Shown here piece after piece: positions 2,297 to 58,786 of a stretch of 64,000 nucleotides of DNA (its first letter is position 1; every line of letters begins with the position of its first letter). This DNA is from Nemertoderma westbladi (taxonomy: Eukaryota > Animalia > Xenacoelomorpha): the NCBI GenBank assembly GCA_032718475.1, contig JAUCBJ010009116.1, forward strand, positions 62,001 to 126,000. The letters are read 5' to 3'. The position numbers and the translations under genes were made by a program. The notes under the pieces are model-generated. The model made no database searches and was not told where the DNA came from. It saw only the letters and a list, made by a program, of their open reading frames with translations.

Positions 2297-2348
2297 ATGT
2301 CTGTATCACACGACCTATTCTCATCCAAGGGTCTCGTTGTTCTTGCCC

Positions 2349-5300
2349 CTATCGGGGTATATTGTTGATATTGTGATGGGGGAATGTCACCCTGTCCCCC
2401 CCCCCCCCCACCGGTATGTTTGGTACTGGGGTTGATGTTAATATGTTGGGGCCCATACACCTATCCGCAATAATTCCCCCCTCCCCTGGGTATATGTTAT
2501 GTCCCTGCATGCTGTAGTCATACTGCTGTGCTGGTACCGGTATAGGCCTATCAGCTTCTGGCCTACTCGCCGGTATGTATTCCGCGACTTCCGGGTTTAA
2601 TCCCGTTGTCCACGCCATCCTATCGCCTACATTGCCTCTCTCAGTATGGCCTATGGTATGTGCAGTAAGGCCTACAGTATGTCCTACAGTCTGCATGTGT
2701 CGCTCGGGATCGAAGTTTATTCTTCTCGAATAATCCTCCCCGCGGCTACCGTATTCTCGATCGATAGGTGTATTCCGTCGGAAAGTTTCTCTTCGACCCC
2801 CCCCCCCTCTACTGTTCTCGTCTTCGTACCGGTACATCGCGTACCCCTCCATCGGCGCGTAGTGCGCCTCGCCGGGTCGCATCTCTCCGGGGCGACGGCA
2901 ATCTCCCGGAGTCCGACCCCACTGACTCTCCGTTCTCATCTCAACTACCGACGGCTCGCTATCCGTCCTCGCTCTTCTATCGTTCGCGGCGATACCTCTA
3001 CTACTGTCTTCTCTTCTTCTCCTTTCAGTGGAGTGTTCCCGCTCGTGAGATCTCTCGTCGACCTCCCGGTTAAACCCCACTGTTCTTCTTCCCTCTTCTG
3101 ATCGGGCTCGACGCTTCGTCCGCCCTCTTACGACGTCAACCTGTCTCTCTCTGCTCGGTCGCACGCCGCTGGGGATACTCGCAATCCCCCTATTACTTTC
3201 CGTCGCCGGTTGTTGCGGTTTACCTATTTCGGCCCGCGCATTATCCGCTGACGGCTGTGGGACACTCTCTGCCCCCCCCCCTTTCGCCGCTAACTCGCTG
3301 TTGTGGGGTTCTCGTAGCCCCCCCCCCCCCCCCCACTCGCCACATCTAACTTCGCTACTCCTCACCCCGCTACTATATCCCTCTCCAGTCGACACATCAA
3401 CCCTACCGCGGTCGGGTCTATTCACCCCCGCCTCTCCCTCTGCTATTGCGTGGCCTACCAGGCCCTCTACTCCCTGCCTACCAACTATGTGGCCTACCAG
3501 GCCCTCGCTGGGTCTACCTAACCCAGCCACTCCCTGCCTACCAACTACGTGGCCTACCAGGCCCTCGCTGGGTCTACCTAACCCAGCTACTCCCTGCCTA
3601 CCAACTACGTGGCCTACCAGGCCCTCGCCGGGTCTACCTAACCCATCTATTCCCTGCCTACCAACTACGTGGCCTACCAGGCCCTCGCCGGGTCTACCTA
3701 ACCCAGCTATTCCCTGCCTACCAACTACGTGGCCTACCAGGCCCTCGTCTGTCTGGCCATACACGCCCGACGTGTTTACATTAATAGCACCCGTATTGGA
3801 AACGGAATTAATTTGTTCGTTCGAAATAAAATCATTTGAATTATCTTGCGCGACTACACTATCTGAATTATTTTGTAAATTCGGGCTCGCTGAATTATTT
3901 AAGTTATTTGGATTATTTTGTGTTATTGCATTACTTAAATTATTTTGTAAGTTCGAATTTGGGTTATTACTTTGATTAATTGGATTATTTTGCGTAGCTA
4001 CATTAATATTAGAATTATTTTCTACATTAATATTAGGAATGTTCTGATTTAAATTTAAATTACTACCACTAGGTAAAGTATTTCCTGCAATAAAGGTTTG
4101 ATTAGAATTGTCCCATACGGTACTATTAATATTAACCACGTCTACTGTACCATTATCATTATTACCCCCCCCCCCCCCCCCGCCCGTACGGTCACACCAG
4201 TTTTGGGTCTGTCGTGCGGTCCCTGTAAGTGGGGTATTAATAAATGTATCCACGGCCCCCGGCTCCTCAAAAATACTCGAGCCAGCCTCGCTCTCAGACT
4301 CCCCCATCTGCGCCAGTTCCACCTCACGCGTGTGTACAGCTTCATACTCTACGAGTTTGTCTCGCTGTTTCTCCAATTCTTTTCGCTCACGCTCCACTTT
4401 TGCTATTTTATCCATAGCCTCCCGTTCGGTCTGCTTGGCCAATTCCATCTCTCTCCTAATCCCCTCCCTTCGCCTCGCCTCACGCGCTCTACGCTCACTC
4501 TCCTCCCTCGCTTCACGCTCTCTGCGTTCACTTTCCTCCTTCGCTTCACGCTCTCTCGCGTTCAGCTTTTCTCTCTCGCCACACGCTCTTCTTGTTCCTT
4601 CAACTCTATTTCATCATACTCCCTAAGGCTCCTCACGGCCCTTTCGGCCCTCTCTCTTATCTCTCCAATCGACGCCATTTCCCTCTCCAGCAGCACTCTC
4701 CCTTCCTCTAGCCGTCTACCTACTTCTCTATTACCTTGCACTGCTAGATTGAGACGGTACCTAGCGTCTATCTCTCTCACCCGTCTTTCTTTTGCGGAGG
4801 ATGTAGCAGACTTATCGGTTGTGGAGGATTCCCTCCGCCTTCCCGATCTACTAGCTTTCCCCCTCCTCCCGGAACTCCCTCCGACCGACGAGACCGAATC
4901 CGCGGGGTCAGCCTCGGATTCGCCCTCCTCAGGTCTGTTCCAACCCACTAATTTTACTCCCCGGGCATCGACCAAGTATGGCCCTATGTACACTGACGCT
5001 ACGCTAGGTTCCATACTCCCACATTCCCATAGTTCAAACAGTTCGCTGGCAACCCCTTTTGCTCTCTCCTCGGCTAGTTCTCTCTGCCCAAAACGCATTA
5101 GGTAATTAAAGTGTCTATCCGACTCACCTAGTCGTTTCCTCAGTCTCACCTCGTCTATCTCCGCCCCTTCCTTCTTAGCGTCCTTTATTAGTCTTTGGGT
5201 CGCGTTGTAGGCCCGTCGGAGTCGATCAGAAACCCCGACGTCCTCGTCGCCGATCTTTCTTCCGTCTCTCCGGGTCCGACGTCGTACCGGCGGCCCCACC

Positions 5301-5695
5301 GTCGCCGTTCCGGCGGGCCGTCCGTCGCCCTCGGCCTGTGGCTGGCCGGCGACATCGGTACCGATATCTCCTTCGTCTCTCTGCGTCCGGGGCCGCACCG
5401 TCGGCCCCACCGTCGCCGTTTCGGCGGGCCGCTCGTCGCCCTCGGCCTGTGGCTGGCCGGCGACACCGGTGCGTCGACCCCCGTCCCGTGTCGACTCGTC
5501 TCCGTCTCCCTCCGTCTCGCTCTCTCTTTCTCTCGGTTCGACCTCGGGTTCCAGGCCCCCCTCGTCCTGAACTGCCGGATGACCCGTTACCGATGGGTCC
5601 GGCGTTGTGGGCCTGTATCGCCTGGTTGCGGCCTCGCGGATCGTTAGCTCTTCGTCCGGGGTCCGCGTCGGTGTCGTGTCACCTGACCGACTCAT
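2349..5695 (-). CDS. Long low-complexity N-terminal extension of BEL gag (ORFs 4562..5695 and 2349..4448, joined by frameshifts)
   Basis: Starts about 70 nt inside the 5' LTR boundary. Contains an E/R-rich coiled coil, an Asn-rich block and peptide repeats. The frames break near a CT repeat (~4570-4590) and at a long C run (2396-2410). Confidence 0.7.
3448..3750. repeat. 60-bp coding tandem repeat x5 (EGLVGHVVGRQGxAGLGRPx)
   Basis: ccaactacgtggcctaccaggccctcg... recurs at 3481, 3541, 3601, 3661 and 3721. Confidence 0.95.
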
Positions 5696-5763
5696 CTCTC
5701 TTCTGCAGATTTCGGTGGCTAGTGGTTATTGAGTTTATCTAGGGCGGCAGCTGGTTTAGTTAC

Positions 5764-6300
5764 TGTGACGGGATCCAAGAGGGATCCCGGTTTATCCGGT
5801 TTTAGTTCACGCGTCCCCGCCGTGTATAAAGAGTGAATGAGTTCTGATGTTGTTTGTCGTATATAATATGATATGCGGATATAGATATAGATATAGTATT
5901 GTCGTATATGGAAGGCGGGATACGGTAACTAAAGTCCCGGTCCTTCCCTATCTAAAACTATGTAATAACCTAAACTAGCACCGGTATTGCACTGAGATAA
6001 CTGAATTGGTATTATTACTGCCAAGTGGCTATATTGCACGGTTGGCCTTGTTACTCTACCTAATCGATGCCTTTCCCCCCTCTGATTGGTTGATACCCTT
6101 GTTGGCGCCCTTTGGAGTGTTCCCGTTCACTCCACCTATTCTCTCTGGGTTAGGGGTTTGGCCCCTGACCCTCTTTGTGTGCTTCCTTCCCACTCTTATT
6201 GGGATGGCACGAGTTGGTTAATTATCCAATCTCGTGGCTCCCAATATTGCTTATCGGCTTATAACTTTATGGGGTGTTAGCGGGATTGAATAAGCTAACA
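5764..6300 (-). repeat. 5' LTR of BEL copy 1 (537 bp)
   Basis: Reads tgtgacgggatc... to ...gctaaca on the plus strand. Both ends match the LTR at 57028-57618 (tgtgacgggatc; ccaatattgctta...actttatgggg...attgaat). Confidence 0.88.
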
Positions 6301-7054: not shown

Positions 7055-10000
7055 CTAACGTGATAATTATCATATTATTAGTAACTAATTAACAAAATGC
7101 TTAAAACTTTGCTGCTTAGTTTTATTGACAAGATAGAGCTATTCATAGATAGGGTATCTTCAACAATAACAAAATCTTACTTTCCTATCATGTATCAATT
7201 TACACTTAAAAGGTGATTAACTTAATAATAATGGTTATAAATTTTTTTATCTATATAAAAACAATAAGTATAAATGAGGATAGTAAAACCGATAGCGGTA
7301 GCAATCACTTCCACTCAATTTAATAACATAAATAATCGTATTCTATTATTAATAATATATTCTAATGAAATTCGTATTCTTACAAACTATGACCCCTCTC
7401 ACTCTCACATTAATAATAAATATAATATATACATATAAATACATTACTAGGTTATTTTTACCTAGTTACTCCCGACTATGTTAGATATTTATTTTGGAAT
7501 AATAGTTATTCTCTTGAGCAACCAGTTTCACGCGTGTGAGGACTTCAGTAACAAGTTGCTCCGTGTGACGGGGGGTGGGTGGGGGTTGTGGGGGGGGGGG
7601 GGGGGGGGGGTGGCCTATGACCAATATTACATTTAATTTAACAAAGCAACAGTCTATCTATCATAGGAATATAGGATACCGGGATACTAAATTAGGTGTG
7701 GCAATAAATAATTATTTATTGGTAAGATTAGTAAAGTAACTGTAATAAATATCGCTTAGTAAGTTACATGTACCTTCCAACAGCAATACAGATGATCTTA
7801 CGGCCAGTTCTGCAGCCAACACGTGTAAATCAAACCTCGGTGATCGTTGTCTGTCTGATGAACATTTATTGATGCCACCAGTGGCAACTACTTTGTCTGT
7901 TTTATCTCTGATTCCGCCGTGGCTGCATTTACCTAGAATGTATATATTTAATTTAGATTTGAGTGTGGATTGTTAATATGCGAATATAAAAAACAATAGT
8001 GATGGTGTATTTAATGCAGACATGTTAGGAGATATGTGGGGCGAGCCATATTTCAGGTGTAGCACACTGTCTATTTGGTTTCATTAGAAAAGCGGTATTT
8101 CTTCTGCCGGCCTGTCGGTTCATCTGTAGAGATGGAGTTGGTAAATGCCCCCCGTGTTTATAGCAAGAACTCACGGCACTAAAATAATCAGCCGTTCCGC
8201 TAGGGGCGCTAAGAACTAACCCTCATCCGTTTTATCTGGAAATTTGGGCTTCTTTATTGGTTGATTATCTTCATCCAGGCTGTTGCTATGGTAACCACTG
8301 GTTAACTTATGTCCAATGACGTTGTCGGAACAGACGTAACCGAGCAACGGTATTTCCTATAGAAGTGATAAGTAAAGAAGAAGAAAAGAAACAGCAGAAG
8401 AAATAAAGTTATTAAATTAAACAAGTTGACTGAAAGATCTTCGAATAATTCCGTATAATTCCATTATGTATAATTTCGTGCAATGAGACTAAGTCAGTAA
8501 ATGTTACAAACCTGACAATTAGAACAAGTTCTATCAGATGGGCCAGCAATGGGTTCTAAGTCTGCCTCAGAACGAGCCAGCTTCTGGTTCAGTAGCTCGC
8601 CGCCGTATAACTCAACCCAATTGGTGTGGGCGTAGAAATCCTGGGCTGTGTGTAACATGTAACCCAATAACACTCGCGCCTAATATAACACAAGTACTAT
8701 AGTAACTAGTAACTATAGTAACTAGTAACTATAACTAATAATACAATATAATATAATATGTAGCAACTATAATAAATACAACTTATCCATATTCAACTGA
8801 TATTCATCAGTGTAACAATTCCAAGTCAACTGTACATGAAACATGATAGTGTTAACGAGCTATTAAACGTCACCAAATAATATCCTCCAAATATGAATCA
8901 CTCTCGTGGGAGTTCTAACCGAAAGCTTATCACCAAAAATATTAATCCTCGTGAGTAATATAAGGTAGTAAAGAGAAGGCAGCTGCTCCCATGTGGAACG
9001 GGTTGTGTTGGACTCAATCAATGAATATATGATTCATGTTGCATTAATTATCAACAACGCTATATATCCTAATAAAATTGATGGGCCACTAAGTTGCAAC
9101 GAAATAATCCATACCTGTCGTATTGGTACAGTAGGTGATGGGTGTCTGACGCAGCCGTAATGGTTAGTTCAGTCCGAAAGGCAAATATCGGTTGATATAT
9201 AGCGGGTAGTGCCGATGCTAACTTAGTTATAACTACCGTAAGTATTTTTGAATTGAAACTATTTTACTGTTAGTATCAGTACCACGGTATTAAAATAAAC
9301 TAATCTCTTATACAACTTTCTACCGGTAACTGTTAGGTATGAAACTGAAACTAACCTTGTGGTAGAGATTACTATCTGTTAGGTATGAAACTGAAACTAA
9401 CCTCGTGGTAGAGATTACTATCTGTTAGGTATGAAACTGAAACTAACCTCGTGGTAGAGATTACTATCTGTTAGGTATGAAACTGAAACTAACCTCGTGG
9501 TAGAGATTACTATCTGTTAGGTATGAAACTGAAACTAACCTCGTGGTAGAGATTACTATCTGTTAGGTATGAAACTGAAACTAACCTCGTGGTAGAGATT
9601 ACTATCTGTTAGGTATGAAACTGAAACTAACCTCGTGGTAGAGATTACTATCTGTCAGGTATGAAACTGAAACTAACCTCGTGGTAGAGATTACTATCTG
9701 TTAGGTATGAAACTGAAACTAACCTTGTGGTAGAGATTACTATCTGTTAGGTATGAAACTGAAACTAACCTCGTGGTAGAGATTACTATCTGTTAGGTAT
9801 GAAACTGAAACTAACCTTGTGGTAGAGATTACTATCTGTTAGGTATGAAACTGAAACTAACCTCGTGGTAGAGATTACTATCTGTCAGGTATGAAACTGA
9901 AACTAACCTCGTGGTAGAGATTACTATCTGTTAGGTATGAAACTGAAACTAACCTCGTGGTAGAGATTACTATCTGTTAGGTATGAAACTGAAACTAACC

Positions 10001-13000
10001 TCATGGTAGAGATTACTATCTGTTAGGTATGAAACTGAAACTAACCTCATGGTAGAGATTACTATCTGTTAGGTATGAAACTGAAACTAACCTCGTGGTA
10101 GAGATTACTATCTGTTAGGTATGAAACTGAAACTAACCTCGTGGTAGAGATTACTATCTGTTAGGTATGAAACTGAAACTAACCTCGTGGTAGAGATTAC
10201 TATCTGTTAGGTATGAAACTGAAACTAACCTCGTGGTAGAGATTACTATCTGTTAGGTATGAAACTGAAACTAACCTCGTGGTAGAGATTACTATCTGTT
10301 AGGTATGAAACTGAAACTAACCTCATGGTAGAGATTACTATCTGTTAGGTATGAAACTGAAACTAACCTCGTGGTAGAGATTACTATCTGTTAGGTATGA
10401 AACTGAAACTAACCTCGTGGTAGAGATTACTATCTGTTAGGTATGAAACTGAAACTAACCTCGTGGTAGAGATTACTATCTGTTAGGTATGAAACTGAAA
10501 CTAACCTCATGGTAGAGATTACTATCTGTTAGGTATGAAACTGAAACTAACCTCGTGGTAGAGATTACTATCTGTTAGGTATGAAACTGAAACTAACCTC
10601 GTGGTAGAGATTACTATCTGTTAGGTATGAAACTGAAACTAACCTCGTGGTAGAGATTACTATCTGTCAGGTATGAAACTGAAACTAACCTCGTGGTAGA
10701 GATTACTATCTGTTAGGTATGAAACTGAAACTAACCTCATGGTAGAGATTACTATCTGTTAGGTATGAAACTGAAACTAACCTCGTGGTAGAGATTACTA
10801 TCTGTTAGGTATGAAACTGAAACTAACCTCGTGGTAGAGATTACTATCTGTTAGGTATGAAACTGAAACTAACCTCGTGGTAGAGATTACTATCTGTTAG
10901 GTATGAAACTGAAACTAACCTCATGGTAGAGATTACTATCTGTTAGGTATGAAACTGAAACTAACCTCGTGGTAGAGATTACTATCTGTTAGGTATGAAA
11001 CTGAAACTAACCTCGTGGTAGAGATTACTATCTGTCAGGTATGAAACTGAAACTAACCTCGTGGTAGAGATTACTATCTGTTAGGTATGAAACTGAAACT
11101 AACCTCATGGTAGAGATTACTATCTGTTAGGTATGAAACTGAAACTAACCTCGTGGTAGAGATTACTATCTGTTAGGTATGAAACTGAAACTAACCTCGT
11201 GGTAGAGATTACTATCTGTTAGGTATGAAACTGAAACTAACCTCATGGTAGAGATTACTATCTGTTAGGTATGAAACTGAAACTAACCTCGTGGTAGAGA
11301 TTACTATCTGTTAGGTATGAAACTGAAACTAACCTCGTGGTAGAGATTACTATCTGTTAGGTATGAAACTGAAACTAACCTCGTGGTAGAGATTACTATC
11401 TGTTAGGTATGAAACTGAAACTAACCTCGTGGTAGAGATTACTATCTGTTAGGTATGAAACTGAAACTAACCTCGTGGTAGAGATTACTATCTGTTAGGT
11501 ATGAAACTGAAACTAACCTCATGGTAGAGATTACTATCTGTTAGGTATGAAACTGAAACTAACCTCGTGGTAGAGATTACTATCTGTTAGGTATGAAACT
11601 GAAACTAACCTCGTGGTAGAGATTACTATCTGTTAGGTATGAAACTGAAACTAACCTCGTGGTAGAGATTACTATCTGTTAGGTATGAAACTGAAACTAA
11701 CCTCATGGTAGAGATTACTATCTGTTAGGTATGAAACTGAAACTAACCTCGTGGTAGAGATTACTATCTGTTAGGTATGAAACTGAAACTAACCTCGTGG
11801 TAGAGATTACTATCTGTTAGGTATGAAACTGAAACTAACCTCGTGGTAGAGATTACTATCTGTCAGGTATGAAACTGAAACTAACCTCGTGGTAGAGATT
11901 ACTATCTGTTAGGTATGAAACTGAAACTAACCTCATGGTAGAGATTACTATCTGTTAGGTATGAAACTGAAACTAACCTCGTGGTAGAGATTACTATCTG
12001 TTAGGTATGAAACTGAAACTAACCTCGTGGTAGAGATTACTATCTGTTAGGTATGAAACTGAAACTAACCTCGTGGTAGAGATTACTATCTGTTAGGTAT
12101 GAAACTGAAACTAACCTCATGGTAGAGATTACTATCTGTTAGGTATGAAACTGAAACTAACCTCGTGGTAGAGATTACTATCTGTTAGGTATGAAACTGA
12201 AACTAACCTCGTGGTAGAGATTACTATCTGTCAGGTATGAAACTGAAACTAACCTCGTGGTAGAGATTACTATCTGTTAGGTATGAAACTGAAACTAACC
12301 TCATGGTAGAGATTACTATCTGTTAGGTATGAAACTGAAACTAACCTCATGGTAGAGATTACTATCTGTTAGGTCTAATATTCGTAGTTTCGACCTCTGA
12401 ATTCCGAGTTGAGCCTCTGATATCCGTTCGGAATCGAAATGTAAATCTGCTCGACTTGCAAACCTGTAAGAATAATTTGTAGTACCGGTACACAGTAGGC
12501 CTAATTATTTACTGTTGTATAGTGATAGCCCGATAGGCCTATTTTTTAAATATATTTTTAAACAAAAAATCGTACAAATCTTTAAAATATGAGGCGGGAT
12601 TGTTGTATAATAAGTGTAACTCGTAGAAACCTATTTTTATACCCAGTAGTGCAGTCTGTGGTGAGATGAACCGTTTATTTATGTTGCAAGCGGAACAAAG
12701 CGAGCAGGTTTTTTTCCCATTGTCAATATCGTATTTGGGAGTACGGGGTCATTTTTTGTGGAATTTTTTTTTTGCTGATTTATTTTTTAAGGGGGTTGAA
12801 ATTGCTACATGGCCCGGTTCGATTCGGAGGTTTTCCATTACTTACTAATTTAGTTCAACTAATAACCTCTTACATTAAATAGACTCTATATTGTTTATTT
12901 GTTAATTTGTTCGTTAATTATTTTTTGAAAGGTGATAATGAATATGAGCTAATTTGAAACGAATTTGTAGATTATTTCACCAAACACAACAGAATATGGA

Positions 13001-17603: not shown

Positions 17604-17761
17604 ATGTCTATCACAGCTGTAGCAATCTCTGCAATGAGACAGAAGCAGAACGAACTGGACGGTGGTAAAGATTATAGACGCGCCAGTCGGTTGAGTAGGG
17701 CGGGTGCTACTACAGGGGGATCCTTACAGGCCAATGGGATGGGTGTAACTAGTGATAGAAA
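17604..17761 (+). CDS. stum: stum-like exon 1
   Basis: ATG at 17604 with TATA-like ttataa at ~17571; encodes MSITAVAISAMRQKQ...GMGVTSDR, then aa|gtaagt. Confidence 0.7.
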
Positions 17762-20700
17762 GTAAGTGTTACAGTGGGAACCTTACAGGCCTATGGGATG
17801 AGTGTAACTGGTGATAGAAAGTAAGTGTTACAGGGGGAACCTTACAGGCCAATGGGATGAGTGTAACTGGTGATAGAAAGTAAGTGTTACAGGGGGGAAC
17901 CTTACAGGCCAATGGATGAGTGTAACTGGTGATAGAAAGTAAGTGTTACAGGGGGAACCTTACAGTGGGAACCTTACAGGCCAATGGGATGGGTGTAACT
18001 AGTGATAGAAAGTAAGTGTTACAGGGGGAACCTTACAGGCCAATGGGATGAGTCCTACTGGTGATAGAAAGTAAGTGTTACAGGGGGAACCTTACAGTGG
18101 GAACCTTACAGGCCAATGGGATGGGTGTAACGGGTGAAAGAAAGTAAGTGTTACAGGGGGAACCTTACAGGCCAATGGGATGAGTGTAACTGGTGATAGA
18201 AAGTAAGTGTTACATGGGGAACCTTACAGGCCAATGGGATGAGTTCAACTGGTGATAGAAAGTAAGTGTTACAGGGGGAACCTTACAGTGGGAACCTTAC
18301 AGGCCAATGGGATGGTTGTAACGGGTGAAAGAAAGTAAGTGTTACAGGGGGAACCTTACAGGCCAATGGGATGAGTGTAACTGGTGATAGAAAGTAAGTG
18401 TTACAGGGGGAACCTTACAGGCCAATGGGATGAGTCCAACTGGTGATAGAAAGTAAGTGTTACAGGGGGGAACCTTACAGGCCAATGGGATGAGTGTAAC
18501 TGGTGATAGAAAGTAAGTGTTACAGGGGGAACCTTACAGGCCAATGGGATGAGTGTAACTGGTGATAGAAAGTAAGTGTTACAGGGGGGAACCTTACAGG
18601 CCTATGGGATGAGTGTAACGGGTGATAGAAAGTAAGTGTTACAGGGGAACCTTACAGGCCAATGGGATGAGTGTAACGGGTGATAGAAAGTAAGTGTTAC
18701 AGGGGGAACCTTACAGGCCAATGGGATGAGTGTAACTGGTGATAGAAAGTAAGTGTTACAGGGGGAACCTTACAGTGGGAACCTTACAGGCCAATGGGAT
18801 GGGTGTAACTAGTGATAGAAAGTAAGTGTTACAGGGGGAACCTTACAGGCCAATGGGAGGAGTGTAACTGGTGATAGAAAGTAAGTGTTACAGGGGAACC
18901 TTACAGGCCAATGGGATGAGTGTAACGGGTGATAGAAAGTAAGTGTTACAGGGGGACCTTACAGGCCAATGGGATGAGTGTAACGGGTGATAGAAAGTAA
19001 GTGTTACAGGGGGAACCTTACAGGCCAATGGGATGAGTGTAACTAGTGATAGAAAGTAAGTGTTACAGGGGGAACCTTACAGGCCAATGGGATGACTGTA
19101 ACTGGTGATAGAAAGTAAGTGTTACAGGGGGAACCTTACAGTGGGAACCTTACAGGCCAATGGGATGGGTGTAACTAGTGATAGAAAGTAAGTGTTACAG
19201 GGGGAACCTTACAGGCCAATGGGAGGAGTGTAACTGGTGATAGAAAGTAAGTGTTACAGGGGAACCTTACAGGCCAATGGGATGAGTGTAACGGGTGATA
19301 GAAAGTAAGTGTTACAGGGGGAACCTTACAGTGGGAACCTTACAGGCCAATGGGATGGGTGTAACTAGTGATAGAAAGTAAGTGTTACAGGGGGATCCTT
19401 ACAGGCCAATGGGATGAGTGTAACTGGTGATAGAAAGTAAGTGTTACAGGGGGAACCTTACAGTGGGAACCTTACAGGCCAATGGGATGAGTGTAACTGG
19501 TGATAGAAAGTAAGTGTTACAGGGGGAACCTTACAGGCCAATGGGATGAGTGTAACTGGTGATAGAAAGTAAGTGTTACAGGGGGAACCTTACAGTGGGA
19601 ACCTTACAGGCCAATGGGATGGGTGTAACTAGTGATAGAAAGTAAGTGTTACAGGGGGAACCTTACAGGCCAATGGGATGAGTCCAACTGGTGATAGAAA
19701 GTAAGTGTTACAGGGGGAACCTTACAGGCCAATGGGATGAGTGTAACTGGTGATAGAAAGTAAGTGTTACAGGGGGAACCTTACAGTGGGAACCTTACAG
19801 GCCAATGGGATGGGTGTAACTAGTGATAGAAAGTAAGTGTTACAGGGGGGAACCTTACAGGCCAATGGGATGAGTGTAACTGGTGATAGAAAGTAAGTGT
19901 TACAGGGGAAACCTTACAGGCCTATGGGATGAGTGTAACTGGTGATAGAAAGTAAGTGTTACAGGGGGGAACCTTACAGGCCTATGGGATGAGTCCCATT
20001 GTAGACGCTGTAGTGTGGGACCTTTACAATATATATTTATTTCCATACAGACGCAACAGTGTGGGACCTTTACCATATATATTTATTTCCCTACAGACCC
20101 AGCAGTGTGGGACCTTTACCAGATATATTTATTTCCATACAGACCCAGTAGTGTGGGACCTTTACCATATATATTTATTTCCCTACAGACGCAGCAGTGT
20201 GGGACCTTTACCAGATATATTTATTTCCCTACAGACCCAGTAGTGTGGGACCTTTACCATATATATTTATTTCCCTACAGACGCAGCAGTGTGGGACGAC
20301 CTTTACCATATATATTTAATTCCCTACAGACGCAGCAGTGTGGGACCCAATGTAGTTATATCTGAAGCAAACGATATTGATGGACGCAAAGCATCCACAT
20401 ACTCATCAGGTATTAAAGATATTACATAATTTTATTATTATATTATATTATATTACATTATTTTACATAATTTTACATAATTTTATTATTATATTACATT
20501 ATTTTATTTTATTATTATATTATATGACATTATTTTATTATTATATTATATGACATTATGTTATTATTATATTATATTACATTATTTTATTTTATTATTA
20601 TATTATATGACATTATTTTATTATTATATTATATGACATTATTTTATTATTATATTATATGACATTATTTTATTATTATATTATATTACATTATTTTATT

Positions 20701-23700
20701 TTATTATTATATTATATTACATTATTTTATTATTATATTTATTATATTACATTATTTTATTTTATTATTATATTATATTACATAATTTTATTATTATATT
20801 ATATTACATTATTTTATTTTATTATTATATTATATTATATGACATTATGTTATTATTATATTATATTACATTATTTTATTTTATTATTATATTATATTAC
20901 ATTATTTTATTTTATTATTATATTATATGACATTATTTTATTATTATATTATATGACATTATTTTATTATTATATTATATGACATTATTTTATTATTATA
21001 TTATATTACATAATTTTATTATTATATTATATTACATTATTTTATTTTATTATTATATTATATTATATGACATTATGTTATTATTATATTATATTACATT
21101 ATTTTATTTTATTATTATATTATATGACATTATTTTATTATTATATTATATGACATTATTTTATTATTATATTATATTACATTATTTTATTATTATATTT
21201 ATTATATTACATTATTTTATTTTATTATTATATTATATTACATAATTTTATTATTATATTATATTACATTATTTTATTTTATTATTATATTATATTATAT
21301 GACATTATGTTATTATTATATTATATTACATTATTTTATTTTATTATTATATTATATTACATTATTTTATTTTATTATTATATTATATTACATTATTTTA
21401 TTTTATTATTATATTATATGACATTATTTTATTATTATATTACATTACATTATTTTATTTTATTTTATTATTATATTATATGACATTATTTTATTATTAT
21501 ATTATATTACATTATTTTATTTTATTATTATATTATATGACATTATTTTATTATTATATTACATTACATTATTTTATTTTATTATTATATTATATGACAT
21601 TATTTTATTATTATATTATATTACATTATTTTATTTTATTATTATATTATATGACATTATTTTATTATTATATTACATTACATTATTTTATTTTATTTTA
21701 TTATTATATTATATGACATTATTTTATTATTATATTATATTACATTATTTTATTTTATTATTATATTATATGACATTATTTTATTATTATATTACATTAC
21801 ATTATTTTATTTTATTTTATTGTTATATTATATTACATTATTTTATTTTATTATTATATTATATTACATTATTTTATTTTATTATTATATTATATGACAT
21901 TATTTTATTATTATATTATATGACATTATTTTATTATTATATTACATTACATTATTTTATTTTATTTTATTGTTATATTATATGACATTATTTTATTATT
22001 ATATTATATGACATTATTTTATTATTATATTATATTACATTATTTTCTCTATCACTATGTCTACATTATTTTATTTTATTATTATATTATATGACATTAT
22101 TTTATTATTATATTACATTACATTATTTTATTTTATTTTATTGTTATATTATATTACATTATTTTATTATTATATAATAATAATCGTCAAGGTACGTAGA
22201 CTCAGGTCGGTACTCAGATGGGCTATAATCCTGAACCGGCCAAGTCTATCCTCATTGTTAAGTCTGGATATGAAGAGGAAGCTGCGGAACTGTTTGGTGA
22301 CACAGGAGTCCAAATCGTCAGTGGGCCTCGTTTCCGTGGAGGATTTATCGGCGAAACAGGAGACAGAAAGGCCTTCGTTATGGAGAAGGTTACCGGGTGG
22401 ATCAACAGCTTAGTTAAGCTCTCGGAGGTAGCTAAGGAGTATCCACAATCTGCACACACGGGGATCACCCTCTGTCTCCAAGTAGAGTGGGACTATTTAT
22501 TGCGTGTTATTCCAATTGCTGACGAAGAAATCGCGCCAATCCGCTCCGCTATCCTCCGCGATTACGCCTGGCAAGGATATTGAGAATCTCCTCTTACTCC
22601 CTGCTCGTGGTATTGGTATACGCGACCCCCTGCTCTTACTCCCTGCTCGGCATGGTGGTATTGGTATACGCGACCTCCTGTTACGACGTGGGCCAGCCAG
22701 GACTGCCTCAACCGATGGTACATCGATGGTTTCTGGTATACGCGACCTCCTGTTACGACGTGGGCCAGCCAGGACTGCCTCAACCGATGGTACATCGATG
22801 GTTTCCGAAGCAATACGCAGTGGCACACCTCTACAAGTGCCAGAACACATACTTACTCTGAACCAGGCCCTCAAGCACTTGAAGAACTTGAGACTACATT
22901 CCTGGAGAAGCGGGACTCGGCACTAGAGAACCTCCCAGCCATTCGACGCAGAACAGTGGAAAGGGCTGTGAACAACAAGACGGGGGGTTGGCTAACAACT
23001 CAACCTTCAATCTTAGATTGCACGGACCTCAGTGCGGAAGAGTTTAAGGACAACCTTGCTCTTCGTTACGGCATGGTCCCTCCGGGATTACCAGCGAGGG
23101 CTGTGGGGGTAATTTCACGACTTCACATGCGTTGAGTTGCAATTCTGGGGGGCTGGTTGTAAAACGCCACGACGAGGTATGTGAGGTCTTCGGTGACCTT
23201 ATCTTCTCTGTTGTTGGGCCCAGCTGTGTTGAGCGGGAGGTGACTCTGTCGCGTGGTAGTCTAGATACCGCCGGTCTCGAGGTCGGTGGCGTTCGAGCCG
23301 ATTTGGTTGCACGTGGGTTCTGGGTGAACCAGAGGGTGGCGTCGTTCGACGTCGCAGTTATAAATGCTGACGCCACCTCCTATGCCCATTCTAATCGCTA
23401 GACCGAGTCTCTGCTAGAAGAGCGCTGCCGCTACAAAAAGCGTCATTACCACGCTGTCTGCGAGGACCGGAGGATGTCCTTCACTCCTGTGGTCAGCACT
23501 ACCGATGGTGTCTGGTGCCGTGAGGCCCAGATCCTTACGCCACATAGCCGAAGCCCTTGTGGAAAAGCGTGACGGTATGCGAGAAAGGGGCCTCGTGTGT
23601 GTTTTAGGGGGTTTGGCGTCGCTTACAATTCGCGCTCCTCATTATATGACATTATTTTATTATTATATTATATTATATTACATTATGTTATTATTATATT

Positions 23701-26700
23701 ATATTACATTATTTTATTTTATTATTATATTATATGACATTATTTTTTCATTATATTATATTACATTATGTTATTATTATATTATATGACATTATTTTAT
23801 TATTATATTATATTACATTATTTTATTATTATATTATATGACATTATTTTATTATTATATTATATGACATTATTTTATTATTATTATAAGGTTAAACAGA
23901 GTGTCTATTTTACCAGTATTATTCTTAGTTTCACTTTCAATTCCACAAAATTGCCTTTCTTCTCTTCCCCGCGCCATATAAACTTCGATTCCAGGTAGTA
24001 GCGGTAGAGTCAGCGTGTCTGATAGTGCCAGTATGACTAAACACCATAAATTCAATGAATTACTGTATACTTATGTAATGCGGAGAGCTGTTATACAGCA
24101 GTATTAGCACACGGTACATGAATGTCAACCATTTTTAGTAATATAATTTAACTGATTATTATCCATCAAATGTATTTAATAGTAATAAATTGGTTAAAAA
24201 GTTGACTTTGAATATAAAATATATTTTTTAAATACATTATAGGCTGTATTTCTCTTCTGTTTAGAGATTTATTAGCAAGTCGTTAGACTTGATTACTGTA
24301 AGAAAAAAAAGCTACTGACTACTGGCTACTGACTACTGGCTACTGACTACTGGCTACTGACTACTGGCTACTGACTACTGGCTACTGGCTACTGACTACT
24401 GGCTACTGACTACTGGCTACTGACTACTGGCTACTGGCTACTGGCTACTGGCTACTGGCTACTGGCTACTGACTACTGGCTACTGGCTACTGACTACTAG
24501 CTACTGACTACTGACTACTACCTACCAAACTGACCTAGAGCATAAACGGCGCTTACGATTATGATGAAATTTTGCATGAAACATGAAAATAGATTTCTAT
24601 GGGTTCTTGTGAAATCGCAGATTCGCAAATTTAAATTTAAACATCTCAACTTGTTTTATTTCGAAAAATAGCCCCAAAACACGAAAATTGAGATAGGAGC
24701 AATGATAAAAACACCAACTGGCACTCATGAAAAATGTATAGAGATGGCCTGGTAATGCATTCAATAGGGGCCAACTAACAAAAAAGTACTTTATGTGTCA
24801 AGTATTATCACTCTACTCTATAACCTAGACAGTAAGCAAACATTAACTGTCTCAGCTGAATAACTCTTCCCAATGCATCCTATGGGAAAATATACAATGT
24901 TACTCACTCTGCTATGTTAATTAATGGCAGTGATTTTTTATGTCAATTTATTTGACTTTTTTTGTCACTTTTTTTTTACGAATTATGCATAATGACTTTT
25001 GTTGTCCATTTAATGACTTTTATTGTCACTTTTTATGTATGTATTTCTTCAAACTGTCAGACTGCTGATTTCTGGACTGTCAGACAGTTGATTTCACTAT
25101 GCCTGTGCCAAAACATTCCATGATTCCATGATTTATAGACTATGAGATAGATTTCCATATGCGCCTGTGGTAAAAAGACTCTATATTTAATAGTTTGTGG
25201 TTGTTGTCGATAATCGATTACCACATGACGTAGCAAAACACTCATTTTATAGCCAAAAACAATTACCAATTGATGGAAAGGAGCTGGTTAAGGCCGAGTT
25301 TTCTAACCAAAACAATAAACAGTCACTTTACCAAATCAGGGAAAGGAGCAGGTTACAGAGACGGGATTTTCTAACCAAAACAATAAACGATCATTTAACT
25401 AATTGAGGGAAAGGAGCAGGTTACAGAGACGGGATTTTCTAACCAAAACAATAAACGATAACATTACCAATTGAGAGAAAGGAGCAGCTTACAGAGGCGG
25501 GATTTTCTAACCAAAACAATAAACGATAACATTACCAATTGAGGGAAAGGAGCAGGTTACAGAGGCGGGATTTCCTAACCAAAACAATAAACGATCACTT
25601 AAACTAATTGAGGGAAAGGAGCAGGTTACAGAGGCGGGATTTTCTAACAAAACAATAAACAGTCACTTTACCAAATCAGGGAAAGGAGCAGGTTACAGAG
25701 ACGGGATTTTCTAACCAAAACAATAAACGATCATTTAACTAATTGAGGGAAAGGAGCAGGTTACAGAGACGGGATTTTCTAACCAAAACAATAAACGATC
25801 ATTTAACTAATTGAGGGAAAGGGGCAGGTTACAGAGGCGGGCCTTCTGTGCTGTTGGAAGTAGTGGAGCCGCTATCCGTAACACTACTCAGACAGTAGTC
25901 ATGATCCATTATTGATTATAAAACTAATACAGTAAGGCCTAAATTATGTGAAAGGTATATCCACATTTTCCACAATCCTGCAATCCAGTTTCGCCTATCA
26001 ATTATTTAAAATTTATTAGCACAACCGGTAGGCCTACCATTACCGTATTTAAATGGTAGGCTACACAGTAGGCCTATAGCAGTACCAGTGCCGGTACCGG
26101 TACTAAAATACAGAAATACCTGCTTTATACCTACATCTGTACATACAATACAGCAAAATAGTGCTATATATACTGTATACTAACCGGTACTGATAGCCTG
26201 AGAGAACAGCAGTAGAGAAACCGGTAGCATGGAACCTAACATTAGACTTTTGGATGACATAAAAAATCAAAAAAAATTGACAAAAAAAGGATAAAAATGG
26301 ACAATAAAAATTATTGCGTTAATTAATTGGCGTGCAAGCTAAATGACTGTTAGTTACACAGTGTGTTGGCTACACAGTGTATTGTACTATGCTCTCATCG
26401 CATTATTGTTTTATTTTTAAATCTTTGTGCCAACATTAATACCGTGGAGGCTGTATGCCCATAAAGCTGAATGTTTACTCAGCCTCATGATTCTCCATAA
26501 GGCTAACATTATGAAATATGTTTGAAATATAAAAATCTGTTATAATAATAATATAATTGTTGTATTTAATTAATATCGTGGTTTACATTGAACAGTGTAA
26601 ATTGTTATTCGTGGTTTACATCTCAACTAACTTGTTTTATTTATTGCAAGCCGGCACAGCATTCTTAAAAATGCAGCTGCAATGCAGCATGCCGATCCTA

Positions 26701-29700
26701 GTAGTATTTATTGCAAAAATATACGGAAGCCCATAGCGGCCAGGACTCAAACATTAATGTGGGACACAAACATTAATGAGGGACACATTAATGAGGGACA
26801 CAAACATTAATGAGGGTCATAAACATTAATGGGGGACACAAACATTAATGAGGGACACAAACATTAATGAGGGACACAAACATTAATCAGGGACACACAT
26901 TAATAAGGGGTACAAACATTAATGAGGGACACAAACATTAATGAGGGACACAAACATTAATCAGGGACACACATTAATAAGGTACACAAACATTAATGAG
27001 GGACACAAACATTAATCAGGGACACACATTAATAAGGGGTACAAACATTAATGAGGGACACAAACATTAATGAGGGACACAAACATTACTCAGGGACACA
27101 CATTAATAAGGTACACAAACATTAATGAGGGACACAAACATTAATGATGGACACAAACATTAATGAGGGACACAAACATTAATTAGGGACACAAACATTA
27201 ATTAGGGACACAAACATTAATTAGGGCACAAACATTAATTAGGGACACAAACATTAATTAGGGATACAAACATTAATAAGGTACACAAACATTAATGAGG
27301 GACACAAACATTAATGAGGGACACAAACATTAATGAGGGACACATATTAATGAGGGACACAAACATTAATGAGGGACACACATTAATGAGGGACACAAAC
27401 GTTAATGAGGGACACAAACATTAATGAGGGACACAATCATTAATGAGGGACACAAACATTAATGAGTGACACAAACATTATTGGGGGACACAAACATTAA
27501 TGAGGGACACAAACATTAATGAGGGACACACATTAATGAGGGACACAAACATTAATGAGGTACACAAACATTAATGAGTGACACCTTAATAATTTGTCTG
27601 CCTAGGGGCCACACATATGCTTACAAACCCTTACTCATATATTTACTTAAAGTATAAAAACCTTTCAAATCACACATACAGACATATGCTTACAAGTTTA
27701 CAAGTTCCATCACAGAAACTTATACCACAAATGCATCAAAACTATTTCTACCTCACCTGATTTATATTGAACTAGAAAGCCTGTGGCCCTTCGGGCCACA
27801 GCTTTCTAGTGCACGTCAGATGATATATGAATGGATCTAGGACACTTCCCCCCCGGACACTTCCCCCCCGCCCAAGTAGGACACTTCCCCCCCGGACACT
27901 TCCCCCCCGGACACTTGCCCCCCGGACACTTCCCCCCCAGTTAAAGTGTTAAAATTAATCTGGGTGCATCAAAGCAATAAACAAAAGTTAAAGATGGTTA
28001 CAGGACAAGTTGTATCTAGACAAGTTTTTTCAAAATTATAAAAGAAACATTTTTATAGTCAAATTTTGTTTGTTTTTCTTTTAATTCCTTTAATTCTTTT
28101 AATTTATTTTAATTGGGGGCTGCCGCCCCCAAACCCTCGCATCTTTTCTTGGGGGTTATCGCCCCCAGACCCCGGCATTTCCCTGAGTGCCCGTTGAAAT
28201 AATTAATTCATGTTTGTATCATCAGATAATAAATTGACTAAGCCTAAAGTAGGAGCTGTATTGAATGTTAACCAATTTAATATATAAATTACTACAATAT
28301 TATATAATTCAACAAAATCCTATTAAAAATATTGCAAGTAACCAGGAAATTTAATATGTAGTGTGTATAATATCTATATAGTATGTATAGTATGTATAGT
28401 AGTAATATATATATCAATATGTAATGCTGAACACAGAATACAGGTCGACGCATGTCGATTTTACCCTGGAGAGGTGTAATTTTAATTGCAACAATAATAT
28501 TCATCCCCATCTGCTACAATTTGAAGAAGACTATTACATAATAATACCTATAATTAAAACAATTAATTATTATGATTCTATAGTTAATAAAAACAGTATA
28601 TCATTCCGGGGATGGAATTTATAGGTCATCTAATATAATTAATTGTTTAAAGATTAGCAAACAATACGATGTAATTGCATTGATAAAACCCATAAATAAA
28701 ACTTGGATATAAAATGTAAAATCGGGATGCAAAAGATCACTTTCTGAGCTACGAAAGGAAAATTGGATACAACTTATCTGGATACAAGCGGTCCGTTTAC
28801 CTTACAAAATGAAAAATACGAATGTGCGAAGTTAAGATCAGTCGGGGGGGAAGTGTCCGCGGGGGGGAAGTGTCTGGGGGGGAAGTGTCCGGGGGGGAAG
28901 TGTCCTACTTGAGCGGGGGGGAACTGTCCGGGGGGGAAGTGTCCGGGGGGGAAGTGTCCGAACACCATATGAATATGTGCGGGATGTGAGGGAATATCCC
29001 TCATTAATGTTTGTGTCCCTCATTAATGTTTGTGTCCCTCATTAATGTTTGTGTCCCTCATTAATGTTTGTCTCCCTCATTAATGTTTGTGTCCCCCAAT
29101 AATGTTTGTGTCCCTCATTAATGTTTGTGTCCCTCATTAATGTGCCCCTCATTAATGTTTGTGTCCCACATTAATGTTTGTGTCCCTCATTAATGTGTGT
29201 CCCTCATTAATGTGTGTCCCTCATTAATGTTTGTGTCCCTCATTAATGTTTGTCTCCCTCATTAATGTTTGTGTCCCTCATTAATGTTTGTGTCCCTCAT
29301 TAATGTTTGTCTCCCTCATTAATGTTTGTGTCCCTCATTAATGTGTGTCCCTCATTAATGTGTGTCCCACATTAATGTTTGTGTCCCCCATTAATGTTTG
29401 TGTCCCTCATTAATGTTTGTGTCCCTCATTAATGTTTGTGTCCCCCATTAATGTTTGTTTCCCTCATTAATGTGCCCCTCATTAATGTTTGTGTCCCACA
29501 TTAATGTTTGTGTCCCTCATTAATGTGTGTCCCTCATTAATGTGTGTCCCACATTAATGTTTGTGTCCCCCATTAATGTTTGTATCCCTCATTAATGTTT
29601 GTGTCCATCATTAATGTGCCCCTCATTAATGTTTGTGTCCCACATTAATGTTTGAGTCCTGGCCGCTATGGGCTCCCGTAAAAATAAGAACGAATTTGTC

Positions 29701-32200
29701 TTATCACTTCTTGTGCGCGATTGTATTGAATTCATGACAACTGCTGTTATTATTATTAATCAATTGACACCTCGACTCCTCTCTGAGACTCCGACTACTC
29801 TATCCGATAGAATAAAATAGTCATTTCGCTAACTGCTCTCTATCTTCTATAATCACAACAGCTTTTATAATTCATTAGATGATTACAACATAATAATTAT
29901 AGTTTGAAGTTGTCTAGAAAATTTATCGTACACCACCGGGACTAACCTCACACTAATCCCTTTCTAGTCAATAAATAAAAATATGTCATCATTATTGTAT
30001 TATGGGAGATTATGGGAAATAACACCGATATCAATTACGTCGTCTCTAATCAATATTATAAATGTTTTTATTCTGTTTTTTTTGCAAACAATACTGTCGT
30101 GTGCTCATTATAGTAAGTTGCATGCTCATTGCTCATTATAGTAAGTTGCGTGCTCAAAATAGTAAGTTGGGTGCTCATTATAGTAAGTTGCATGCTCATT
30201 GCTCATTATAGTAAGTTGCGTGCTCAAAATAGTAAGTTGCGTGCTCATTATAGTAAGTTTGTGTAGACTAACAAAAAATGGATCCGGGTCTCGCAACTAA
30301 TTTACCTAATTTTTCTTTCTTTTTTTAACAGGTACTAGAAAGGTGTCGATAACATCAGCGGATATCCGAAATTACATGAAGAATGTTCGCCAAGCGAAAC
30401 AGCGCCAGTCAATGCAGTTGGCGCTGGATCAGGCGGCTCAACAAGAGCGACAGGACCACTTTATGGCTATGCCGGCTTGCAAGTTTCCTGTCGCCGTATT
30501 GTGTTGTGTTATGAATGTAATAGTCCCAGGGTTGGGTAAGTACTGAATGTAACAGGTTGTTACTAGTTGAACTTCTGTTTTATTGTGTACGTCTACTCGA
30601 AATTATCTAATATTTCAGGCAAGAAGTACCTCCCTAAAGCCCTGTTCACATCCAACGGTGCGTGAGCGGTAAAGTAGTCTAGCGGTATTGAAGCGGTAAG
30701 CCAGCGGTACACTACCCAGAGCCCGTTCACACCCAACGGTACCGTTGCGGTAACTGATTGTTTATCTGTCGACTGTGTCGATTACATTAATTGTTTTAAC
30801 ATTGTTTAAATGGGCTGCGGTAAACCGCGCGGTTTAGCGTACAACTACGTACCTGTTGGGTCGTTCACAGTCAGCGGTGTACCGTTCCGTTGGATGTGAA
30901 CGGGCCTTTAAGGAAGGATGAATTGATGAGTTGACGTAATGAATATAAATTTATAGTTTTAATTTAGTTTCTTATCAATTTAAGGAAAGGAATAGGTATC
31001 AGTGACAGGCTATTCTAACTAAAAGCAGGAGTCAATAACACAGGAGAACATGTTCCTTCTTATCTTATTTAATAAATCTAATAAAGTTTCACTCCAATTT
31101 AAAATATGATGACTCATTGGGTATTTTTTTCTAACAATTTAACATTACCACTGTGATGTAGACGTTACAACTCTAGACAAGTGACTTTACACGTCCGGGG
31201 GGGCCTTCGCGCAGCAAAAATTAGCAAAAATTTAGGTCATGAATCGGTATTAATCATAAAATACATTTTAATATGAATAAATTTTTCAGGAACTGTAGTA
31301 TCTGGTTTCACCCTTCTCTGTGGATCCAGTGGTAATAAAAAGAAATACGACCACGCTATGAAGCAAGTGCTGGCCAACGTGTTTATAGGTCTCAGTATGT
31401 TCTTTACAGTAACGTTCTTCTTGGTTGGCTGGATATGGAGCATCGTATGGGGATACCAATTGGTATCATTCGCCAGTAAGTATTTATTTATATTGGATAC
31501 CAATTGGTATCATTCGCCAGTAAGTGTTTATTTATATTGGATACCAATTGGTATCATTCGCCAGTAAGTATTTATTTATATTGGATACCAATTGGTATCA
31601 TTCGCCAGTAAGTATTTATTTATATTGGATACCAATTGGTATCATTCGCCAGTAAGTGTTTATTTATATTGGATACCAATTGGTATCATTCGCCAGTAAG
31701 TGTTTATTTATATTGGATACCAATTGGTATCATTCGCCAGTAAGTGTTTATTTATATTGGATACCAATTGGTATCATTCGCCAGTAAGTGTTTATTTATA
31801 TTGGATACCAATTGGTATCATTCGCCAGTAAGTGTTTATTTATTTATATTGGATACCAATTACCTAAATTCCTAAATTTGTACACTACCCGGTTAAAAAG
31901 TACGCATGTGATGGGATTAGTCCTACAATTGCGCCAATAAAAGATAAGTTATTTTCGGTAAAATAAACTTATCATTCGAGGTTAAGACCCCTAGATCCCT
32001 TCCTATAATAAATGCATAAGAAACATGTAAGAAATGTGATTAAATTGACATGGAAAGGAGTCAATGCAAACAGAATGGAAAAGGGGCTAGTTTTATACTT
32101 AGTGCAATAACAATTAATGAATCGCCCCATTTTTATTTCATTTACAGAAGAACACCAGAAAATTGAGGATAGAAAACAGTTAAAGAATCTACTTGCTTGA
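17604..32200 (+). CDS. stum: Protein stum homolog / SPEC3-family small membrane protein (~238 aa). Exons: 17604-17761, 20330-20409, 23995-24030, 30332-30535, 31290-31475, 32148-32200
   Basis: The C-terminal domain (AMPACKFPVAVLCCVMNVIVPGLGTVVSG...NVFIGLSMFFTVTFFLVGWIWSIVWG) matches the stum/SPEC3 signature. Exon lengths sum to 717 nt with consistent phases (2,1,1,1,1), GT-AG introns and TGA at 32198-32200. Exons 1-3 are inferred from splice signals and phase only. Confidence 0.8.
17711..19995. repeat. 59-bp (variant 73-bp) tandem array (~36 units) made from the stum exon 1 splice-donor junction
   Basis: The unit is TACAGGGGGAACCTTACAGGCCAATGGGATGAGTGTAACTGGTGATAGAAA|gtaagtgt. The first unit is the 3' end of exon 1. 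The longer variants carry a 14-bp internal duplication, tgggaaccttacag. Confidence 0.96.
20003..20347. repeat. 46-bp tandem array (7 acceptors) made from the stum exon 2 splice-acceptor junction
   Basis: The unit is tttaccatatatatttatttccctacag|ACGCAGCAGTGTGGGACC. AGs end at 20050, 20096, 20142, 20188, 20234, 20280 and 20329. Confidence 0.93.
20330..20409 (+). CDS. stum: stum-like exon 2
   Basis: ctacag|A CGC AGC AGT...TCA TCA G|gtatt; encodes RSSVGPNVVISEANDIDGRKASTYSS; 80 nt, supplying the phase 2->1 change needed to join exon 1 to the downstream exons. Confidence 0.72.
20421..22182. repeat. AT-rich minisatellite (~26-bp units, tattatatgacattattttatt-like)
   Basis: gac/tac anchors at ~26-bp spacing (e.g. 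20609, 20635, 20661). It resumes at 23640-23888 after the LINE fragment. Confidence 0.92.
22183..23640 (+). mobile_element. CRE-like non-LTR retrotransposon fragment (RT C-terminus, CCHC zinc finger, restriction-like endonuclease), degenerate
   Basis: Motifs GYNPEPAKS, GGFIG, YPQSA, LPARHGGIGI, LSAEEFKDNLALRYG, HALSCNSGGLVVKRHDEV, RADLVARGFW...FDV, KKRHY and FTPVVVSTDG. It has frameshifts and an internal 63-bp duplication. Confidence 0.8.
23640..23888. repeat. Continuation of the AT-rich minisatellite
   Basis: Same units as 20421-22182. Confidence 0.9.
23995..24030 (+). CDS. stum: stum-like exon 3 (36-nt symmetric microexon, possibly optional)
   Basis: Pyrimidine tract...ttccag|GT AGT AGC GGT AGA GTC AGC GTG TCT GAT AGT GCC A|gtatga; phase 1-1. 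Confidence 0.55.
24311..24520. repeat. 7/14-bp microsatellite (gctactg/actactg)n
   Basis: Directly visible. Confidence 0.95.
25240..25840. repeat. ~68-bp tandem repeat (~9 units)
   Basis: gagggaaaggagcaggttacagagacgggattttctaaccaaaacaataaacg recurs, e.g. caataaacga at 25381 and 25449. Confidence 0.92.
26722..29680. mobile_element. Non-autonomous foldback-type DNA transposon with TACGG...CCGTA ends and a 6-bp TSD (IS3EU-like); arms made of inverted 19-bp minisatellite
   Basis: TIR TACGG(A/G)AGCCCATAGCGGCCAGGACTCAAACATTAATG at both ends; aaaata on both flanks (26716-26721, 29681-29686). (cattaatgagggacacaaa)n at 26748-27582 and its reverse complement at 28997-29654. Confidence 0.85.
27833..28966. 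mobile_element. Non-autonomous Mutator-like element with C/G-run tandem-repeat TIRs (copy A), nested in the IS3EU-like element
   Basis: GGATCTAGGACAC...GTGTCCGAACACC ends; (ggacacttccccccc)n arms inverted at the two ends; 8-bp TSD atatgaat; near-identical to 34201-35418. Confidence 0.88.
30100..30259. repeat. 21-bp tandem repeat (~7 units) just upstream of stum exon 4
   Basis: gtgctcattatagtaagttgc repeated. Confidence 0.9.
30332..30535 (+). CDS. stum: stum-like exon 4
   Basis: ttttttaacag|GT ACT AGA...GGG TTG G|gtaag; ends AMPACKFPVAVLCCVMNVIVPGL; 204 nt. Confidence 0.9.
30637..30908. mobile_element. ~270-bp MITE
   Basis: TIRs aagccctgttcacatccaacgg / ccgttggatgtgaacgggcctt, flanked by TA on both sides; internal TIR-like subrepeats. 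Confidence 0.8.
31290..31475 (+). CDS. stum: stum-like exon 5
   Basis: tttttcag|GA ACT GTA...; encodes TVVSGFTLLC...VGWIWSIVWGYQLVSFA, then a|gtaagt; 186 nt. Confidence 0.92.
31451..31861. repeat. 44-bp tandem array (9 donors) made from the stum exon 5 splice-donor junction
   Basis: The unit is GGATACCAATTGGTATCATTCGCCA|gtaagt(a/g)tttatttatatt. GT at 31476, 31520, 31564 ... 31828. Confidence 0.96.
32148..32200 (+). CDS. stum: stum-like last coding exon
   Basis: tttcatttacag|AA GAA CAC...CTT GCT TGA; encodes KEHQKIEDRKQLKNLLA*. Confidence 0.8.
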
Positions 32201-32429: not shown

Positions 32430-32790
32430 AGCCAAGGAATGCCTGTTCACCACCATGGGTGATCTTCCACAGTAAACCCTTCCACTCTGTTTCCTAAAGG
32501 AATGCCTGTTCACCACCGTGGGTGATCTTCCACAGTAAACCTTTCCACTCTGTTTCCTAAAGGAATGCCTGTTCACCACCGTGGGTGATCTTCCACAGTA
32601 AACCTTTCCACTCTGTTTCCCAAGTTGCCTTGGTTCCCATTTATCGACCACTGAAGAATGAAAGCCGGGGTTGGGCTAGGCTGCAGCATTTAAAGCACTG
32701 TTGCCCAAACAGTGCTGCCCCATCTAGGGATCGAACCAGGGCTCCCTAATTGGAAGCCCAGGAATTTCACCACTAGACCAAGCTGCTGCC
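32430..32790 (-). mobile_element. tRNA-derived SINE with a triplicated 63-bp 3' segment
   Basis: On the minus strand: A-box TGGTCTAGTGG and B-box GGTTCGATCC in a tRNA-like head (32717-32790), then a non-tRNA body and three 63-bp repeats (32434-32620). Confidence 0.75.
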
Positions 32791-58556: not shown

Positions 58557-58786
58557 CGGTACTATGTACCCTCTTACTCCCGTGGTATGTCTCTATACCA
58601 CACTCCCTGATCTCTAACTTCTACCTCTCCCGGTACTATGTACCCTCTTACTCCCGTGGTATGTCTCTATACCACACTCCCTGATCTCTAACTTCTACCT
58701 CTCCCGGTACTATGTACCCTCTTACTCCCGTGGTATGTCTCTATACCACACTCCCTGATCTCTAACTTCTACCTCTCCCGGTACTA
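58557..58786. repeat. 74-bp tandem repeat x3 in the BEL 3' UTR
   Basis: cggtacta... at 58557, 58631, 58705 and 58779; each unit contains the hairpin gtggtat-gtctct-ataccac. Confidence 0.9.

Follow-up and report, generated by a model that had tools for sequence, protein, structure and literature searches.

How does the spliceosome choose one splice site among many identical copies? The puzzle is already posed by "mirages", tandem copies of an exon-intron border known from the lancelet genes for Adh3, globins (BflGb6 and BflGb9 in amphioxus), troponin C, and PGBD5. In the available text of these reports, the lancelet mirages are said not to disturb splicing, though many of their units retain AG/GT (PMC3087553, PMC3902484). 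A locus of Nemertoderma westbladi closes the escape routes, since its donors are identical to the letter, folding gives no help, no unique intron sequence is left in which silencers could act, and the spliceosome is also presented with a compact inner intron. The locus lies in a window of 64,000 nucleotides (the whole stretch of DNA analysed, from contig JAUCBJ010009116.1), whose positions are used throughout. The reading considered probable is that two mirage minisatellites fill the first coding intron and that splicing from donor 1 to the final acceptor yields the mRNA. If splicing uses these outer sites cleanly, the choice would have to come from the order of synthesis and from exon context, against the proximity rule described for HeLa cells.

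By its sequence, the gene hosting the arrays is assigned to the STUM/Spec3 family (PF15795). The five-exon model on the plus strand (Table 1) gives 226 aa, with phases and frame agreeing across all five exons. Exon 4 lies above the curated Pfam cut-off of 27 bits, and exon 3 alone falls below it. A HMMER search returned 146 relatives of exon 4, and the ten of them that were looked up, matching at 47-52% or less, include proteins from a crinoid, a sea cucumber (named "Protein stum"), a sea urchin, an acorn worm, and a shark. The best homologs are named stum or SPEC3-like, which together with the domain in exon 4 bears out an earlier note in which the gene had been called stum from the letters alone. 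Searching the word index with exon 3 or exon 4 by itself gave 4 and 12 candidates, respectively, with no orthologous intron among them. One sequencing run (X1, its kind guessed; 0.05 of words) gave three contigs against exons 3-4, matching in pieces of 18-40 nt and with no joint among them, a blank that carries no information about expression.

Table 1. Features of the STUM/Spec3 gene and its border arrays (positions in the window).
Feature	Position	Strand	Description
Exon 1, predicted coding	17604..17761	+	ATG at 17604, phase-2 end; predicted, no homolog match
Donor array	17711..19994	+	59-nt unit; 36 donors; final unit partial
Predicted intron 1	17762..20329	+	2,568 nt; bounded by the outermost donor and acceptor; sole frame-keeping pair among 288
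Junction 10-mer	19995..20004	+	9/10 positions like exon 2 +17..+26; degenerate acceptor AG at its end
Acceptor array	20003..20347	+	46-nt unit; 7 full acceptors
Exon 2, predicted coding	20330..20409	+	80 nt; predicted
Exon 3, coding	30332..30535	+	its end begins the Spec3 domain; PF15795 E 0.01
Exon 4, coding	31290..31475	+	Spec3 core; PF15795 E 1.4e-16, 61.2 bits
Second donor array, one-sided, exon 4	31451..31861	+	44-nt unit, 9 donors; border supported by Pfam
Last coding exon, predicted	32148..32200	+	through the stop codon; predicted

Intron 1 is made up of 2,233 nt of donor array, 8 nt, and 327 nt of acceptor array. The donor unit consists of 51 nt from the end of exon 1 followed by the first 8 nt of the intron, and the acceptor unit of the last 28 nt of the intron followed by the first 18 nt of exon 2. 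Units of both kinds span an exon-intron border, the borders themselves being predicted from frame. Both arrays score far above chance in TRF (2890 at period 59 and 565 at period 46). The GTAAGT donors have their GT from 17762 to 19952, and their 35 spacings are of 59 nt (19 cases), 58 nt (4), 60 nt (3), or 73 nt (9), the last corresponding to a unit with an internal 14-nt copy. The AGs of the full acceptors end at 20050, 20096, 20142, 20188, 20234, 20280, and 20329, in units of 46 nt except for the last one, of 49 nt, and a degenerate eighth AG ends at 20004. The earlier count of some 36 donor units followed by 7 acceptor units is thus reproduced, with the degenerate copy in addition. The same note had placed about 8 nt of unique sequence between the arrays. 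These 8 nt are there, but they belong to the junction 10-mer with its likeness to exon 2, a match that 92 of 5,000 random 10-mers reached equally well against the local pool. Its estimate of about 100 nt for the innermost pair also agrees with the 99 nt separating the innermost donor from the nearest full acceptor (53 nt to the degenerate one). The two-sided amplification of a single intron, with no interior remaining, is the distinctive feature of this locus.

The donor units are 97.8% like their consensus and fall into 14 haplotypes (32 of 35 units compared). This look of a homogenised minisatellite counts in favor of the proposed explanation, under which the arrays most probably persist as tolerated passengers without function. 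Variation affects 13 of the 59 columns of the unit and none within the 9-nt donor motif (P 0.088). The decoy donors seem not to be decaying, an observation that is neutral at best toward the proposed explanation.

Frame arithmetic singles out the outer pair. When only single cuts between the listed sites are considered, 1 of 288 donor-acceptor combinations preserves the 226-aa frame, that of 17762 with 20329. Every inner donor reads through a TAA located at the first donor, and the upstream acceptors either shift the frame (+49, +95) or lead to an early stop (20188, 20050), all of which had been proposed beforehand. The accompanying claim that only the outermost of some 250 pairs keeps the reading frame holds for such single cuts, but has to be relaxed beyond them. 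Acceptors 20335 and 20338 also keep the frame when joined to the first donor, as do 13 of the 76 two-step products tested that include an internal pseudo-exon of 45 or 60 nt. The donor units contain 80 acceptor-like TTACAG sites, which are weak, with pyrimidine fractions of 0.24-0.47 and one to four AGs just upstream.

Neither in strength nor in folding are the real sites locally favored over the decoys. From -3 to +8 there is no difference among the 36 donors, and six of the 35 inner ones equal donor 1 over 40 exon and 13 intron bases. Opening donor 1 is predicted to cost 1.2 kcal/mol (mean 1.4, range 0.5-2.1), and 13 of the 35 inner donors have a value as low or lower. RNA structure as a discriminator is ruled out on these predictions, since folding would give donor 1 no advantage. 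A stronger last acceptor is ruled out as well: its pyrimidine fraction is 0.65, against 0.65-0.71 for the others, and a private T to A change near the AG cuts its pyrimidine content.

With regard to position, the arrays resemble constructs with duplicated 5' splice sites, where identical strong donors stand in tandem and contest one acceptor. In HeLa cells, two strong donors at least 45 nt apart lead almost entirely to use of the intron-proximal one, at least in the part of the report available (PMC3413131), whereas in the STUM gene it is the farthest of the 36 donors that has to be used. Because its identical donors lie 58-73 nt apart, the proximity rule predicts the wrong site here. Given that neither local strength nor folding favors the real sites, the outer choice is likely made by position or exon context. 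In the cis-competition experiments of Reed and Maniatis, a shorter exon piece beside the inner site reportedly shifts use to the outer site, an effect that would fit the exon fragments of 51 and 18 nt present here.

In the proposed explanation, the outer sites would win through position and exon context, helped by decay of the wrong products. Donor 1 would be transcribed first and would close a full exon, and the cap may help if intron 1 is the first intron, as cap-linked recruitment of U1 to the first intron has been described (PMC7462061, in the text available). Acceptor 20329, in turn, is the one nearest to the exon 2 donor (20410) and stands ahead of the only complete exon 2, which would favor it through exon definition. 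Transcripts with early stops are removed by nonsense-mediated decay, and the wrong products, which would carry such stops, may be cleared in this way. Upstream of exon 1 are found a consensus donor (CAG/GTGAGT) at 13058 and an acceptor-like site at about 15618. Both could belong to untranslated exons, which bears on the cap-proximity of intron 1.

A different route to the same mRNA, considered unlikely, is nested stepwise removal, in which inner introns of about 100 nt would be cut first and donor 1 and the last acceptor joined at the end. The inner sites are locally equal to the outer ones, the proximity bias favors the inner donors, and pairing from the inside out yields introns of 99, 105, 106, 119, 105, 105, and 122 nt, sizes that fit intron definition. 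Strict removal in this order, however, consumes all seven acceptors and strands 29 donors in a dead product. To succeed, the route would have to reserve the last acceptor for donor 1, and this calls for the same discrimination as removal in one step. Recursive or nested (intra-) splicing is the removal in steps of an intron with inner splice sites, and intron 1 likewise has inner sites that could go stepwise. In contrast to recursive splicing, the acceptor copies do not recreate an AG/GT ratchet point: a GT never follows an inner acceptor directly, as all eight acceptor AGs precede AC, with which the exon 2 copies begin. The stepwise junctions would consequently rebuild no GT donor, unlike those of classical recursive splicing, and such removal appears possible but unneeded. 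The earlier note had concluded that the spliceosome must ignore the innermost pair, which is too strong a statement. Excising the inner pair is harmless because the same outer ends remain, provided that inner partners use up neither donor 1 nor acceptor 20329.

Quite unlikely is a functional extension of this idea, where the intron would be peeled from inside and the 36:7 ratio of donors to acceptors would determine the frequency with which an inner donor takes the last acceptor. Through unproductive splicing, the length of the arrays would then act as a heritable and mutable dial on how much STUM is made. The locus would gain in importance if removal in steps or control of dosage were true. 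It is a good natural minigene and a test case for splicing, and not evidence of a new element, function, or system.

The same low probability is given to the possibility that the main 5' end of the gene is not formed by exons 1-2. The protein would then start in a different first exon or at a methionine of exon 3 (Met 95, 107, 124, or 126 of the model), and the arrays would occupy weakly constrained sequence. Vertebrates have STUM proteins of about 130-145 aa, and exons 1-2 lack homology: they matched no family in Pfam, no alignable homolog was found for them (best E 0.047 among 146 proteins and 0.066 among 235), and none of the 86 proteins from a profile search was near enough to span them. 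The length of the open frame is weak support for exon 1, because an ATG-led open stretch of at least 49 codons also precedes 3 of the 17 listed GTRAGT sites that are presumed not to belong to genes. Against an alternative start stand the fit of phases and frame over the five exons, the A at position -3 of the exon 1 ATG, and the arrays themselves, the one built around a consensus donor and the other around a plausible acceptor of matching phase.

The N-terminal sequence adds to these arguments. The first 90 aa contain five overlapping matches, at four sites, to [RK][RK]xS, taken here to be a kinase-site-like motif, against 0.32 expected. This count was reached by none of 20,000 shuffles, although the motif had been spotted by eye before counting, which makes the test post hoc. 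One of the sites is created by the join of exons 1 and 2, and another lies just beyond the join of exons 2 and 3. The enrichment is common to the N-termini of homologs, where 58 proteins carry 56 matches ahead of the domain against 17.0 expected, approximately threefold; at least 100 aa precede the domain in 50 of the 75 homologs with a recognisable anchor. Frame, phases, and these motifs suggest that exons 1-2 are coding and joined in the modelled frame.

Very unlikely is an error of assembly in otherwise real arrays, where a lost interior or inflated units would account for the numbers of copies or for the abruptness of the junction: the one assembly examined does have a 100-N gap in another array (38732-38831) and its G-runs of variable length (4-6) are as in homopolymer errors, but 17711-20347 has no gap, the units hold ordered substitutions and 14-nt insertions, and divergent edge copies flank the junction, as expected at the ends of real arrays.

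As to their origin, the two arrays share a motif of about 15 nt at their unit borders, with 13 of 15 columns aligned. A motif score of this size was reached anywhere in the unit by 84 of 2,000 shuffles; in the gene, the match coincides with the border of both units. The bases after the real donor are a variant of the start of the unit, with two differences from exon 1, and align with the border of the acceptor unit. One motif could therefore have seeded both duplications. Slippage or unequal exchange at this short motif, common to exon 1, intron, and exon 2, may have produced the arrays, which would then have grown through the usual turnover of minisatellites, the genome being rich in repeats, and have lost the sequence between them. 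Collapsing each array to one copy leaves 8 + 13 + 28 = 49 nt, and together with the border motif this hints at an ancestral intron of approximately that size. The very short ancestor proposed in the earlier note is thus plausible but unproven: the present junction (19974-20022) is a chimera of part of a donor unit, the exon-2-like 10-mer, and the start of exon 2, and simple collapse requires a further rearrangement. A longer ancestral intron with a deleted interior is also possible. Metagenome scans for the orthologous intron gave 347 pattern hits with exon 4 and 598 with exon 1, none of them confirmed.

Compared with known systems, the arrays of intron 1 are best placed, from their sequence, in the mirage class, which the earlier note had not brought up, as an extreme variant that is two-sided and free of interior. 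Similar to amphioxus mirages, they are head-to-tail repeats of minisatellite-size units (59 and 46 nt) that span the exon-intron border and copy the splice signal. The unit sizes fall in the reported range (10-72 bp in Adh3, 60 and 108 bp in PGBD5), and both donor and acceptor types as well as diverging edge copies are shared. In the available text of those reports, however, the amphioxus mirages are one-sided, with 2-7 units where counted, and their correct splicing was tested by RT-PCR (PMC3087553, PMC3902484). Here, 36 and 7 units occupy both borders and abut, which brings an inner donor and acceptor as close as 99 nt, and splicing is predicted from sequence. A full-text literature search, whose scope took in few subscription papers and left out the original Adh3 paper and supplements, found no two-sided mirage. 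Internal tandem repeats at exon-intron boundaries are also described in human duplicated genes, and there too minisatellite expansion changes the structure of genes and provides cryptic sites. As far as the available text goes, the human repeats lead to new introns or alternative transcripts (PMC2812944), whereas here repeats appear to have filled an existing intron from its two ends, and the frame is broken by the alternatives listed.

The gene lies in a repeat-rich setting, with 46% of the window in arrays of more than 300 bp, and this setting and the second donor array at exon 4, which the earlier note had not mentioned, favor the proposed explanation. Arrays coincide with 3 of the 8 splice sites (P 0.012 at 6.5% per site), or with 1 of 6 once the two selected sites are removed (P 0.33), a result that shows no excess of arrays at splice sites. 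At exon 4, use of inner donors in the second array would change the C-terminal tail (235-244 aa), with some versions ending in the last exon and thus being less exposed to decay. A 63-nt array with an acceptor-like site follows the stop codon (32434-32620), and a 21/70-nt array with seven GTAAGT motifs (30101-30259) ends 70 nt before the exon 3 acceptor. Starting 9 nt past the exon 2 donor is a very AT-rich array of 26/31-nt units (20419-22179 and 23642-23884), split by a GC-richer insert (about 22180-23640) that by eye looks like a decayed piece of a retroelement.

Further from the exons, a 46-nt unit with a donor-like TAG/GTATGA is repeated 66 times at 9330-12374, with no exon tied to it, and a 17-kb array (35806-52775) holds 416 copies of a 41-nt unit at 97%, the assembly gap mentioned above lying within it. 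Inverted arrays of 19 nt and 15 nt flank a shared AT-rich core that is present twice (26743-29659 and 34208-35412), and by eye look like a fold-back or MITE-type element. Both ends of the window (1-6000 and 57000-64000) are GC-richer blocks with strong T and C skew, perhaps minus-strand retroelements.
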